From Candidatus Odinarchaeia archaeon (GTDB lineage: Archaea; Asgardarchaeota; Odinarchaeia; Odinarchaeales; Odinarchaeaceae), in contig JAHQXC010000044.1 of the NCBI GenBank assembly GCA_029856525.1, positions 1 through 10,858 of the forward strand: a DNA stretch of 10,858 nucleotides, read 5' to 3'. Position 1 is the first letter of the stretch; each line of letters begins with the position of its first letter. The notes below the pieces were generated by a model, which did no database searches, had not been told where the DNA came from, and was given only the letters and a program-made list of their open reading frames with translations. The position numbers and the translations under genes were made by a program. This document shows positions 2,244 to 7,700 of this stretch, piece by piece.

Positions 2244-3719
2244 GTGTTAAACTTTATAGACGGTGAATGGGTTGAAAGCGAGTCTGGAAGATGGGTGGAA
2301 AGAGAGAATCCCGCCGATAGCCGGGTAACCGTTGCAAAAATAACTCAATCCGTTAAAGAAGATGTTGAAAAAGCCGTTGCAGCGGCGGCTAGAGCTTTTG
2401 AAAAGTGGAGGAGGATACCAGCGCCGCGGAGAGGTGAAATCTTATTCAAAGCAGGTGAAATTCTTAAAAATAGAAGAGAAGAGTTGGCCAGAATTATAAC
2501 ATTGGAGATGGGTAAGATACTGTTAGAGGCTCGAGGTGACGTTCAGGAAGCGGTTGATATGTGCTATTATATGGCAGGAGAGGGGAGAAGATTATACGGT
2601 GAAACCACTCCTTCAGAACTCCCTGATAAAGATATAAAGACGATAAGAGAGCCCATCGGTGTGGTTGCGGCTATCACACCCTGGAATTTTCCGATAGCGA
2701 TCCCATCCTGGAAGATTCTACCCGCATTAATCTGCGGGAACACTGTTGTATTAAAACCTTCAAGCTATACAAGTTACAGTGCTTCAGCGTTTATCGAATG
2801 CCTTAACGACGCCGGGCTTCCGGCTGGCGTGGTCAACCAGGTAAACGGAGGCGGGGAGATCGGGGAAATTCTTATAAAACAAAGCGAGGTTAAAGCAGTC
2901 TCATTTACCGGTAGCACGAAAGTAGGATTTGAAATAGAAAAAACCGCGGTTGAGCGGCATATACCTTTCATGTGCGAGATGGGGGGTAAAAACGCTATAA
3001 TAGTGTTAGATGACGCTGATATAGATTTAGCGGTTAACGGCGCTGTCTGGGGAGGTTACGGCACCACTGGGCAACGCTGCACAGCCGCCTCCAGACTAAT
3101 AGTTCAAGAAAGCATTCTCAACAAATTTAAGAGTAAACTTGTCAACGAGATTAAAAAATTAAAAATAGGGTCAGGGTTAGATGAAACAGTTCAGATAGGG
3201 CCGCTTGTAAGCGAAAATCAGAGAAGAAGAGTCCACGATTACACTCAAATAGGCCTGGAGGAGGGCGCTAAGCTAGTAACAGGTGGAAAATATTATATAG
3301 AGGGGGGCTGCGAGCACGGCTACTTCTATGAGCCGACGTTATTTGAAAATGTGACACCGGATATGAGAATAGCTCAAGAAGAAATATTCGGGCCAACTGT
3401 AGCCTTAATTCAATGCGAAGATTTCAAAGATGCTTTAGAAATAGCTAATGGAACCAACTATGGACTCTCGCTTGCAATATATACACGTGATATTAATAAA
3501 GCAGCTATAGCTGAAAAAGAGCTTCAGTCAACATTAGTGTATATAAACGCTCCTACAATAGGAGCTGAAATCCATGCGCCGTTTGGAGGAATAAAAAACA
3601 CAGGGCTATTACATAAAGAGGCTGGTGGTAGAGGGGGTGCAATAGACTTTTATAGTAGGGTAAAAGTGGTTTACCGGGATTACAGCGGTCGCCTGCAGAG
3701 AGCTCAGATAGATAAATAA
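2244..3719 (+). CDS. NAD(P)-dependent aldehyde dehydrogenase (resembles the AldH/CAJ73105-like subfamily)
   Basis: PWNFP, FTGSTKVG, catalytic Glu in EMGGKN, catalytic Cys in GQRCTA, EEIFGP and PFGG motifs. The true start may be ATA at 2235. Confidence 0.95.
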   Translation: MLNFIDGEWVESESGRWVERENPADSRVTVAKITQSVKEDVEKAVAAAARAFEKWRRIPAPRRGEILFKAGEILKNRREELARIITLEMGKILLEARGDVQEAVDMCYYMAGEGRRLYGETTPSELPDKDIKTIREPIGVVAAITPWNFPIAIPSWKILPALICGNTVVLKPSSYTSYSASAFIECLNDAGLPAGVVNQVNGGGEIGEILIKQSEVKAVSFTGSTKVGFEIEKTAVERHIPFMCEMGGKNAIIVLDDADIDLAVNGAVWGGYGTTGQRCTAASRLIVQESILNKFKSKLVNEIKKLKIGSGLDETVQIGPLVSENQRRRVHDYTQIGLEEGAKLVTGGKYYIEGGCEHGYFYEPTLFENVTPDMRIAQEEIFGPTVALIQCEDFKDALEIANGTNYGLSLAIYTRDINKAAIAEKELQSTLVYINAPTIGAEIHAPFGGIKNTGLLHKEAGGRGGAIDFYSRVKVVYRDYSGRLQRAQIDK

Positions 3720-3728: not shown

Positions 3729-3805
3729 TGGTGGGCGGGGAGAGTTTTGAACTCTCGACCTCCGCGCTGTCAACGCGGCATCATAACCAACTAGACTACC
3801 CGCCC
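3729..3805 (-). tRNA. tRNA-Val(GAC), intron-less, CCA encoded
   Basis: Minus strand reads GGGCGGG-TA-GTCTAGTTGGTTATGAT-G-CCGCG-TT[GAC]AG-CGCGG-AGGTC-GAGAG-TTCAAAA-CTCTC-CCCGCCC-A-CCA. Acceptor, anticodon and T stems pair fully. Confidence 0.97.
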
Positions 3806-3862
3806 GTGAATAATAGATAACACTTATTTAATAAAAGGCTGGTGCGGCTGCCGGGATTTGAA

Positions 3863-3890
3863 TTCCCGACTTAACGGTTAACGCTAAGTT
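3863..3890 (-). other. tRNA-Gly intron 2, non-canonical 53/54 position (T arm), 28 nt
   Basis: Sequence A-ACTTAGCG-TTAAC-CGTTAAGT-CGGG-AA. 8-bp hairpin with one G-U pair; perfect central helix CCCG/CGGG; bulges GGA and AAT; short outer helix GA/TC. Confidence 0.9.
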
Positions 3891-3905
3891 CCCGGGTCGC
3901 AAGCG

Positions 3906-3934
3906 CTCCGAATCTAATACGATAGTATTAGATA
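3906..3934 (-). other. tRNA-Gly intron 1, canonical 37/38 position, 29 nt
   Basis: Sequence T-ATCTAATAC-TATC-GTATTAGAT-TCGG-AG. Perfect 9-bp hairpin; central helix CTGC/TCGG pairs 3 of 4; 3-nt bulges CAT and AGC. Confidence 0.92.
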
Positions 3935-4003
3935 TGGCAGGCTCGCGTCCTAATCCAAACTAGACTACAGCCGCATAGCTACAATGCTAATATATGATAC
4001 ATA

Positions 4004-4017
4004 TTTTTAAATTTTAC
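4004..4017 (-). promoter_or_regulatory. BRE-TATA promoter of tRNA-Gly
   Basis: The minus strand reads GTAAAA-TTTAAAAA, ending 29 nt before the mature tRNA 5' end. Confidence 0.65.
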
Positions 4018-4025
4018 CTATAAAA

Positions 4026-4128
4026 TGGTGGACCGGGCGAGATTTGAACTCGCGGCTTGCGGTGTTTAAATCTATTAAATACATCTCCGCCATGCCAAGG
4101 CGGCGATCTTCCGCTGATCTACCGGCCC
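4026..4128 (-). tRNA. tRNA-Ala(GGC) with one variable-loop intron, CCA encoded
   Basis: GGGCCGG/CCGGTCC acceptor with the G3-U70 Ala identity pair; D stem GATC/GATC; anticodon arm CCGCC-TT[GGC]AT-GGCGG; T arm GCGAG-TTCAAAT-CTCGC. Length is 75 nt after removing 28 nt. Confidence 0.96.
4057..4084 (-). other. tRNA-Ala intron, non-canonical 45/46 position, 28 nt
   Basis: Sequence A-TGTATTTAATAGATTTAAACA-CCGC-AA. Imperfect AT-rich hairpin; perfect central helix GCGG/CCGC; bulges AGA and AAG. Removal restores a 5-nt variable loop, AGGCC. Confidence 0.88.
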
Positions 4129-4156: not shown

Positions 4157-4345
4157 TTAAACTATTCTGACCTTATTAACCTTCTTATTAGCCCAATTAT
4201 ATTTTCTTAAACGGCTTGAACGACCGAAACCGCAGGCTGCGCAGTATCTCTTCCTAGCCAGATAAGAGTGGCGCCCGCATCTCCGACACCTGATATGTGT
4301 GAATTTATTACCTCTCTTACCAAAAGACGGTGTACCTTTACTCAT
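4157..4345 (-). CDS. rpl37e: 50S ribosomal protein L37e
   Basis: [11 protein letters not shown]...[13 protein letters not shown]....YCAACGFG Zn-finger signature; SD GAGGTTGA 4 nt upstream. Confidence 0.97.
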
Positions 4346-5792: not shown

Positions 5793-7700
5793 TTATTTTA
5801 AACGGATGGATTCTAAATTATCTGGAGCCCTCGTCTCTATTCTATAAGTCTTATGAATATAACCTGCAAGGTTCACGCATTTACTGTTCTCGCCGTGGCA
5901 GGTTAAAATCCTCTCCGGTTTCGGTCGAATCCTCTGTATAAAGCTTAACAGCTGTCTTCTATCAGAGTGCCCTGAAAATCCTTCAATCGTGTGAACCTGC
6001 ATTTTAACATTAACCATCTCTATTTTACCATCCCTGTTTTTCATAGGAATATCCTTCAACCCCTTCTGAACCCGTCTGCCTAAGGTTCCCTCAACCTGGT
6101 AGCTTACAAATATAAGAGAGTTTTTAGGATCATCTGCTAAAAGCCTGAAGTATTCGACTGAAGGCCCTCCTTGAAGCATCCCGGAAGTGGCTAGAATAAT
6201 ACATGGATCACCGCTTACAATATCCGTTCTCTCACTCATATTATCGACTTGAACGAAATACTCTGCTAAAAACGGGTTGTGACCGTAGTGAAATATTTTC
6301 TCTCTCAGTTCAGCGTTAAGATACTCTGGGTGAGTGGTGTGAATAGCTGTGGCTTCAGAGATCATACCGTCTATGTAAACCGGTGCCGTCGGTATCGCAC
6401 CGCGCCTCATAAACTCCTCTATTACCAGTATTATCTCTTGAGCTCTACCGACTGCTAAAACAGGTATTAAACATTTACCGCCCCGGCTGATAGTGGCTTT
6501 CAAAATTTCAACTAAACTAGCTTCAGTATCCTTTTTAGCTGGCATGATATCAGTTGGAGCGCCGTAGGTACTCTCTATTATAAGGGTTTCAAGACGTGGA
6601 AAATTATAATTAGCCTGCTCTAAAAGCCTTGACGGCCCGAATTTAAAATCACCTGTATATGCTAGGTTGTAAAGCCCGTCGCCTATGTGCAAATGAACTA
6701 TCGAGGAGCCTAATATATGCCCTGCGTTGTGAAGCGTCAACCTTATATCAGGGGCTATGTCTGTAACCTCACCGTATTCTAGAGGAATAGTGTGTAAAAC
6801 CATTTTTTTAACATCTTTAGGGCTGTAAGGGAGCAGCTTCCCCTCTCTTGAAGCTACATCAATATAGTCTAGTTGAAGTAAAGTCATCAAATTAAGCGTA
6901 GCACTAGTGCAGTAAACAGGCCCCTCGTATCCGTATTTATATAGGAATGGGACGAAGCCTGAATGGTCTAAGTGAGAGTGAGTTACAATCACCGCGTCAA
7001 GCTTATCCAACTCGAATTCAGGCATGTCCAATCTAGGAAACGGCTGAAGCGTTGAGCCGACGTTAACACCGCAGTCAATTAACACACTGCTCTCTATTGT
7101 TTGAAGAAGAATAGAAGTTCGCCCAACCTCTCTGAATCCGCCTAAAGCAGTGACCCTTATAAAATCACTTTTAAGAACAGGGGGCCTGTGAATTCTCTCC
7201 CCTATCTTTCTAAGAATTTTTTTCCTCAACTCGCTTTCATTTTGGAGAATAGCACGGATTTGGCTCACTGTCTTAGATGCTAACGGCGGGGTTCTAACAA
7301 CCACAGGCCGCCATAAAACTTTACCAGCGATCTCTTTAAGAGTCACCCCGCTTCGCCCTATCACCAATCCAGGTTTTTTAGCCTCGATCACCACTTCTCC
7401 CAGATTATGATCAAAATAAAGACTGGTGATCTCGGCTTCAGCGGGAACAATACTTTTAATAGCGGCTTCCGCTTCTGCAGGATCAGATCTTATAGACGGG
7501 TCTGATCTTAAAACAATCCTCTTCCTAATCTTGTGAACAAGCTCTTTTACAAAATCCTCGTTATCCATTAATATCTGAGGGTTCTTGGAATAAACCGCTA
7601 TCTCAGGGCCCTCGAATTCTACAGCTGTAACCATCGCTTTCTGTGGTATAGAGTTAAGTATTGTTTCACGAAGCTCCTCTAAAACATCCTTCGAAGACAT
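5793..7700 (-). CDS. fttA: aCPSF1/FttA beta-CASP ribonuclease with N-terminal KH domains
   Basis: EFEGPEI and KPGLVIG KH motifs; LGGFREVGR; THSHLDHSG metallo-beta-lactamase motif; AGHILGS; ESTYG; FSGHSD; CHGE; 635 aa. Adjacent to the proteasome beta gene as in many archaea. Confidence 0.96.
   Translation of the reverse strand: MSSKDVLEELRETILNSIPQKAMVTAVEFEGPEIAVYSKNPQILMDNEDFVKELVHKIRKRIVLRSDPSIRSDPAEAEAAIKSIVPAEAEITSLYFDHNLGEVVIEAKKPGLVIGRSGVTLKEIAGKVLWRPVVVRTPPLASKTVSQIRAILQNESELRKKILRKIGERIHRPPVLKSDFIRVTALGGFREVGRTSILLQTIESSVLIDCGVNVGSTLQPFPRLDMPEFELDKLDAVIVTHSHLDHSGFVPFLYKYGYEGPVYCTSATLNLMTLLQLDYIDVASREGKLLPYSPKDVKKMVLHTIPLEYGEVTDIAPDIRLTLHNAGHILGSSIVHLHIGDGLYNLAYTGDFKFGPSRLLEQANYNFPRLETLIIESTYGAPTDIMPAKKDTEASLVEILKATISRGGKCLIPVLAVGRAQEIILVIEEFMRRGAIPTAPVYIDGMISEATAIHTTHPEYLNAELREKIFHYGHNPFLAEYFVQVDNMSERTDIVSGDPCIILATSGMLQGGPSVEYFRLLADDPKNSLIFVSYQVEGTLGRRVQKGLKDIPMKNRDGKIEMVNVKMQVHTIEGFSGHSDRRQLLSFIQRIRPKPERILTCHGENSKCVNLAGYIHKTYRIETRAPDNLESIRLK

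Follow-up and report, generated by a model that had tools for sequence, protein, structure and literature searches.

Genomic context of an interrupted tRNA-Gly gene

The window analyzed here is the 10,858-nt contig JAHQXC010000044.1, part of a 1.32-Mb Candidatus Odinarchaeia archaeon assembly that consists of 127 contigs and is 93% complete. The spacer between an aldehyde dehydrogenase gene and the L37e gene holds three tRNA genes, all on the minus strand, and the one at positions 3840 to 3974 is a 135-nt pre-tRNA-Gly(GCC) with two introns and an encoded CCA end (Table 1). None of the open reading frames of at least 60 amino acids in the window overlaps this gene. The A/T-rich candidate promoter element listed in Table 1 has comparable counterparts upstream of the neighboring tRNA-Val and tRNA-Ala genes.

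The lineage is Odinarchaeia, within the Asgard archaea, and not TACK. An earlier reading of the same DNA, made from the sequence only, had taken the nearby sepF gene as a hint of a lineage other than Thermoproteales, and the neighborhood bore this out: aCPSF1 (5793 to 7700, minus strand) is 94% and 92% identical to its counterparts in two Candidatus Odinarchaeota metagenome-assembled genomes (MAGs) that share the gene order. One related Odinarchaeota MAG has a CRISPR array about 3.3 kb upstream of aCPSF1 (L002:2483-2760) that is absent from the window; its four repeats score 32 bits against Rfam CRISPR-DR7, which is under the gathering threshold.

The adjacent tRNA-Ala(GGC) gene has a G3:U70 pair and a 28-nt intron (4057 to 4084) at 45/46, in the variable loop. 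The motif around this intron combines a perfect central helix (GCGG with CCGC) with a 3-bp inner helix, and ARAGORN in intron mode miscalled the gene as tRNA-Leu(taa).

Table 1. Positions in the window of the tRNA-Gly(GCC) gene, its parts, and the features around it. A slash within a bulge marks the predicted cut.
Feature	Position	Strand	Remarks
Aldehyde dehydrogenase gene	2244-3719	plus	spacer boundary
tRNA-Val(GAC)	3729-3805	minus	intron-less
Candidate terminator	3830-3836	minus	T-rich tract, 3 nt past CCA; putative
Exon 3	3840-3862	minus	23 nt including CCA, tRNA positions 54-76: T-loop, 3' T-stem strand, 3' acceptor strand, A73, encoded CCA
Intron 2	3863-3890	minus	28 nt, site 53/54
Intron 2 bulges	3890-3892, 3862-3864	minus	GG/A and AA/U
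Intron 2 central helix	3893-3896 with 3865-3868	minus	CCCG (tRNA positions 48-51) with CGGG (intron 3' end)
Intron 2 inner hairpin	3882-3889 with 3869-3876	minus	8 bp, directly adjacent
Exon 2 (micro-exon)	3891-3905	minus	15 nt, tRNA positions 38-53: 3' anticodon-stem strand, 4-nt variable loop, 5' T-stem strand
Intron 1	3906-3934	minus	29 nt, site 37/38
Intron 1 bulges	3934-3936, 3905-3907	minus	CA/U and AG/C
Intron 1 central helix	3937-3940 with 3908-3911	minus	CUGC with UCGG, 3 of 4 pairs
Intron 1 inner hairpin	3925-3933 with 3912-3920	minus	9 bp; outer helix is the anticodon stem
Exon 1	3935-3974	minus	40 nt, tRNA positions 1-37: 5' acceptor strand, D arm, 5' anticodon-stem strand, loop 32-37 (CUGCCA) with anticodon GCC
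Candidate archaeal TATA box	4000-4014	minus	A/T-rich, 26-40 nt upstream of mature 5' end; putative
tRNA-Ala(GGC)	4026-4128	minus	one intron
L37e gene	4157-4345	minus	spacer boundary

Structure of the gene

The locus matches the Rfam tRNA family (RF00005) at positions 3843 to 3974 of the minus strand, across all of the model (positions 1 to 71 of 71), with a score of 30.5 bits against a gathering score of 29. The margin is small because the alignment contains two large inserts, one of 31 in the anticodon loop and one of 35 in the T-loop. ARAGORN missed the gene with and without its intron mode, and a genome-wide Rfam look-up returned without the locus even at E <= 10, in line with the sequence-only reading, which had warned that standard annotation often overlooks such genes.

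To parse the locus, a SPLITS-like routine enumerated bulge-helix-bulge (BHB) candidates, removed up to three of them, and asked ARAGORN whether the product was a full-length tRNA. The sole solution at this locus was a 78-nt tRNA-Gly(gcc) with introns after pre-tRNA positions 40 and 84; among the enumerated BHB candidates, every other choice of boundaries in the region lacked either a BHB-like motif or ARAGORN's acceptance of the product. The sequence-only reading had proposed a double-intron tRNA-Gly(GCC) with introns at 37/38 and 53/54 that leave exons of 40, 15, and 23 nt. Its coordinates, strand, and parse were reproduced by Rfam, the BHB scan, and ARAGORN, and its boundaries proved to be the unique joint solution of the last two.

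ARAGORN called the spliced 78-mer a tRNA, and its cloverleaf has stems of 7, 4, 5, and 5 bp. The spliced anticodon loop reads CUGCCAC, with the anticodon GCC at 34 to 36, U33, and a purine at 37, and the mature sequence further contains U8, A14, G18G19, A37, G53-U54-U55-C56, A58, C61, C2:G71, G3:C70, and A73. The identity elements of glycyl-tRNA synthetase are C2:G71, G3:C70, C35, C36, and A73. All of them are present in this tRNA, which is predicted to be charged with glycine. The folding z-score of the gene is -6.7.

Two BHB introns lie within 135 nt of one contiguous gene, which places the locus among multi-intron tRNA genes, defined by at least two such introns in a single contiguous gene. 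Split and tri-split tRNAs are encoded at separate loci and joined in trans; the exons here are contiguous and on one strand. Group I and group II introns have a self-splicing ribozyme fold and measure hundreds of nucleotides. The inserts measure only 28 and 29 nt, and no Rfam intron family matches in the window.

Folding of the two splice motifs

A strict BHB was defined as a 4-bp helix flanked by two 3-nt bulges, one on each strand, with the cut after the second base of each bulge. Intron 2 has such a motif (scan entry 84,112), with 4 central pairs, an inner helix of 8, and an outer helix of 2 bp formed by G45-C56 and A46-U55. The unconstrained minimum free energy (MFE) structure contains exactly this motif at 60 and 75°C, whereas at 37°C it instead pairs CGGGA of intron 2 with the 3' strand of the T stem.

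Intron 1 is bounded by a relaxed BHB (scan entry 40,69) with 3 central pairs, an inner helix of 9, and an outer helix of 7. Its central helix consists of C-G, U.G, and G-C pairs and one C.U mismatch, and neither the BHB scan nor a check by hand found a perfectly complementary 4-mer pair for this intron in any register. An alternative register with 1-nt bulges is 3 to 5 kcal/mol more stable between 37 and 75°C. The imperfect central helix and the greater stability of the alternative are the reasons for classing the motif as relaxed, and an imperfect first BHB would make its recognition depend on an enzyme of relaxed specificity. The register favored by MFE was itself rejected as the splicing structure, since a G-to-A variant present in a relative would break it.

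The first motif spans pre-tRNA positions 30 to 75 and the second spans positions 77 to 115, so that both can coexist on one precursor. Drawn jointly, they give -50.5 kcal/mol, compared with -61 kcal/mol for the unconstrained MFE structure at 37°C. The sequence-only proposal that both motifs can fold at once therefore stood in that they do not overlap and can be drawn together, and needed amendment in that the first is a relaxed motif and not a canonical one.

Conservation and covariation across the order

Comparisons were made among seven genomes, all kin and from few independent lineages: four of the genus, including a closed genome assembled as a single 1.418-Mb contig, and three of the sister genus. 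The gene and its gene order are conserved in 7/7 genomes of the order, and both introns are kept in the tRNA-Gly(GCC) of the three further genomes of the genus. Variation among the four genomes of the genus is confined to the introns: 16 of the 57 intron columns vary, whereas the 78 exon columns are all identical (P = 2.5e-7).

The substitutions within introns are found in hairpin loops, in bulges, or at the loop-side end of the inner hairpin, or else they preserve a pair. For example, the intron 2 hairpin of the closed genome has lost two pairs on its loop side and carries a compensatory change from A-U to G-C at its base, and the intron 1 hairpin of a second relative (G003) has lost one pair, likewise on its loop side. 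In one relative, a G-to-A substitution turns the U.G of the intron 1 central helix into U-A, which strengthens the canonical register and therefore argues against the alternative.

In the sister genus, tRNA-Gly(GCC) has an intron at 37/38 only, with the same CUGCCA/C junction (slash, splice junction). The alignment gap there matches the 28 intron 2 columns precisely, and the sister genus accordingly has the predicted junction between exons 2 and 3 as plain DNA. Between the two genera, compensatory changes affect four pairs. Two of these join exon 1 to exon 3 in the acceptor stem and the other two join it to exon 2 in the anticodon stem, so that all three exons are linked as parts of a single molecule under selection. 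Across 21 stem pairs in six sequences, 126 of 126 cells are paired, compared with 36 to 48% when the partners are slid.

Copy number and demand for the gene

A genome-wide Rfam look-up that misses the very gene in question is unfit to prove the absence of a second copy, and the search therefore used BLAST and a 5'-exon pattern. With the whole precursor as the BLAST query, the only match elsewhere in this genome was to the 3' end of tRNA-Gly(UCC). In the three further genomes of the genus, the 5'-exon pattern found exactly three tRNA-Gly genes apiece (GCC, UCC, and CCC); it found two of these in the present assembly, where the CCC gene is not assembled. Neither approach found a second tRNA-Gly(GCC), intron-less or otherwise, in the four genomes of the genus, one of them closed. 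The sequence-only reading would have given way to the lack of a spliced product together with an intron-less tRNA-Gly(GCC) elsewhere in the genome; no such gene turned up here or in the three other genomes, including the closed one. As the assembly is 93% complete, the absence of a second copy rests partly on the closed genome of a related species.

Among the ten open reading frames of the window, GGU and GGC account for 119 of 218 glycine codons, so that about half of the glycine codons (GGY) would depend on two predicted splicing events.

Splicing enzymes and proposed processing

The genome contains two genes with EndA domains, encoding proteins of 188 and 187 amino acids. The 188-amino-acid protein aligns with the catalytic alpha subunit of Aeropyrum pernix (3P1Z_B) with E = 6e-44; no gap interrupts this alignment in the Crenarchaea-specific loop, K44 equivalent included, and the protein retains its Tyr/His/Lys triad. 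In the 187-amino-acid paralogue, the catalytic His is replaced by Ala, as expected of a structural beta subunit. Judged by these sequences, the genome encodes a predicted EndA of the alpha-beta type with the Crenarchaea-specific loop. A gene for the RNA ligase RtcB is also present. In a survey by Kaneta et al. (2018, PMC5829648), Asgard archaea were assigned an alpha-beta endonuclease with an L1 loop, and the alpha and beta subunits found here agree with that assignment. By analogy with crenarchaeal enzymes (PMC3241643), the endonuclease would be expected to accept the relaxed first motif.

Taken together, the locus is very probably a functional tRNA-Gly(GCC) gene, the only copy found, whose two BHB introns are spliced by EndA and RtcB. 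The 135-nt precursor would be transcribed from its own A/T-box promoter and would fold two independent BHBs. The relaxed motif surrounds the canonical site 37/38, and the strict motif surrounds site 53/54 of the T arm. In each 3-nt bulge, the cut would follow the second base and would be made by the endonuclease, a presumed heterotetramer of catalytic alpha and structural beta subunits with the Crenarchaea-specific loop that is linked to a broad substrate range. Ligation by RtcB would then turn the exons (40, 15, and 23 nt) into a 78-nt tRNA with a CCA end that the gene itself encodes. The gene structure, the two motifs, conservation with covariation, the enzyme genes, and the lack of a second copy in the genomes searched are what the sequences show; that the gene is transcribed, that the cuts fall at precisely these bonds, that the exons are ligated, and in which order the two introns leave are steps that we infer from them.

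Competing explanations

The relaxed first motif gives reason to consider that the gene is real and that intron 1 is removed otherwise, either in another register or at another boundary, or with intron 2 excised first. Such processing would place a different base at 37 or 38 or would impose an obligatory splicing order. A central helix with only 3 of 4 pairs and the MFE preference for 1-nt bulges both speak for it. Against it, no other boundary in this region combines a BHB-like motif with an acceptable ARAGORN product, the helix has a single substitution, favorable to the canonical register and disruptive to the other, and the sister genus uses the same 37/38 site with an identical junction. 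Altered removal of intron 1 is therefore improbable.

The low Rfam score and the missing ARAGORN call could also be read as signs that the locus is a tRNA pseudogene, decaying or silent, and that another gene has taken over its function. A gene in decay would not be expected to have invariant exons around variable introns or to maintain every stem by compensatory changes; moreover, no other GCC gene to take over the function was found in four genomes, one of them closed, and GGY makes up more than half of the glycine codons in the window. On these grounds, a pseudogene is very unlikely. A chance resemblance to tRNA in an AT-rich spacer has the modest Rfam score in its favor and nothing else. 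It is contradicted already by the ARAGORN call on the spliced product, the exon invariance, and the covariation, and it is equally at odds with the folding z-score, with a full cloverleaf that appears once two motif-bounded inserts are removed, and with conservation alongside the gene order throughout the order. Its probability is close to nil.

Relation to known interrupted tRNAs

The sequence-only reading had held that multi-intron tRNAs are established mainly in Thermoproteales and a few other TACK groups, a view that is outdated, as Asgard tRNA genes are now known to be heavily interrupted (PMC5829648, PMC11291895, bioRxiv 10.64898/2026.10.13.758758). Kaneta et al. (2018, PMC5829648) included Odinarchaeota LCB_4 in their tRNAscan-SE and SPLITS survey. 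In Atabeyarchaeia and Freyarchaeia, the majority of tRNA genes have several introns (Valentin-Alvarado et al. 2024, PMC11291895), and T-arm introns are prominent in a census of 90 Asgard genomes (2026 preprint, bioRxiv 10.64898/2026.10.13.758758). The multi-intron tRNAs of these three sources resemble the present gene in coming from the same phylum, in having several short BHB introns per gene that are concentrated at 37/38 and in the T arm, in their alpha-beta endonuclease with an L1 loop, and in that some were missed by standard annotation; they differ in having up to five introns per gene, compared with two here. This particular gene is not described in these papers (for Kaneta et al., in the main article), and Odinarchaeia are not named in the text of the 2026 census.

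Multi-intron tRNAs of Thermoproteales (Sugahara 2007, 2008; Fujishima 2010, as cited in PMC4033280) have 2 to 3 BHB introns at canonical and noncanonical positions. According to that citing account, they share with the present case an alpha-beta endonuclease with the Crenarchaea-specific loop and the occurrence of similar introns in different tRNA species. Thermoproteales belong to TACK, whereas the gene described here is from an Asgard archaeon, and the copying of introns between tRNA genes that is documented there is only weakly suggested here (P ~0.05). The tri-split tRNA-Gly of Caldivirga maquilingensis (Fujishima et al. 2009, as cited in PMC4033280) is likewise made of three pieces by BHB-dependent cutting and joining, but its pieces are described as separate genes joined in trans, whereas the exons here form one 135-nt transcription unit. 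A eukaryotic nuclear tRNA gene is similar in having several ectopic introns, one of them in the T arm, and differs in being a nuclear gene, in its eukaryotic enzyme, and in its intron positions.

The phenomenon is therefore already published for Asgard archaea. Multi-intron tRNA genes are also common in this genome, so the gene is a correct but ordinary further case. Its value is that of a well-supported example, with covariation across a 15-nt micro-exon, of how heavily interrupted and under-annotated Asgard tRNAs are. Because routine tRNA finders under-call this genome, tRNA-based estimates of completeness or codon capacity for Odinarchaeia would be too low.

Possible intron turnover at position 53/54

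With the routine that couples BHB enumeration to ARAGORN, at least 10 other tRNA genes of this genome were found to have two introns, including Gln UUG, Gln CUG, Glu UUC, Glu CUC, Thr UGU, Lys UUU, Trp, and Leu GAG. A pattern for a 53/54 intron in a T arm of this kind matched 38 of 400 sampled Asgard genomes, from at least 7 families, and none of the controls. Such introns occur in tRNA-Gly(CCC), Gly(UCC), Asp, and Glu and, in this genus only, in Gly(GCC).

Among 34 distinct 53/54 introns, the nearest non-orthologous matches to intron 2 are the Glu(CUC) introns of the sister genus. Their score is only 0.19 to 0.26, with P ~0.05 relative to random hairpins of matched composition, so that intron 2 was not accepted as homologous to any other 53/54 intron. 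The tRNA-Glu(CUC) gene, both in the sister genus and in G000 (C99:1425-1540), has an intron within the anticodon, at 34/35, with a strict BHB (GGGC with GCCC); the sister genus has the 53/54 intron in addition, and its similarity to intron 2 is about 80% with the flanking exons counted in. A tRNA-Asp(GUC) gene (G000:C5:232-335) has a 26-nt intron at 53/54 that all four genomes of the genus keep. In the closed genome, Gly(GCC) intron 2 has come to share both of its ends (TG... and ...CCGGGA) with the Asp intron, which could reflect local gene conversion or coincidence.

The presence of intron 2 in one genus but not in its sister, together with a presence-absence polymorphism in tRNA-Gly(UCC), suggests that introns have recently come or gone at this site, for which the palindromic CCCGGG of the T arm would be permissive. 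One tentative scenario, for which we would not claim more than modest odds, is that intron 2 was a lineage-specific gain in the Odinarchaeum genus, copied from a tRNA gene with a palindromic CCCGGG T arm, with Glu(CUC) and Asp(GUC) as possible donors and with 53/54 still being colonized. If so, the genus would offer natural before-and-after pairs for how archaeal tRNA introns arrive. For studying intron origin, the presence or absence of the 53/54 intron between the sister genera and the Gly(UCC) polymorphism may prove more useful than the tRNA-Gly(GCC) gene itself.

The polymorphic tRNA-Gly(UCC) has a precise 20-nt BHB intron at 53/54 in G003 (G003:C104:1500-1800) and is intron-less in the three other genomes of the genus (including G000:C77:5703-5780). 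A comparison among the 53/54 introns yielded no convincing donor for the G003 intron. The T stem of this tRNA has an A52.C62 mismatch in three genomes, whereas the closed genome pairs G52 with C62. In three genomes of the genus, tRNA-Gly(CCC) combines a strict 37/38 BHB (CCCC with GGGG) with a 53/54 intron (CGCG with CGCG), and its spliced anticodon loop reads CCCCCAA, with C at position 33 instead of the near-universal U.
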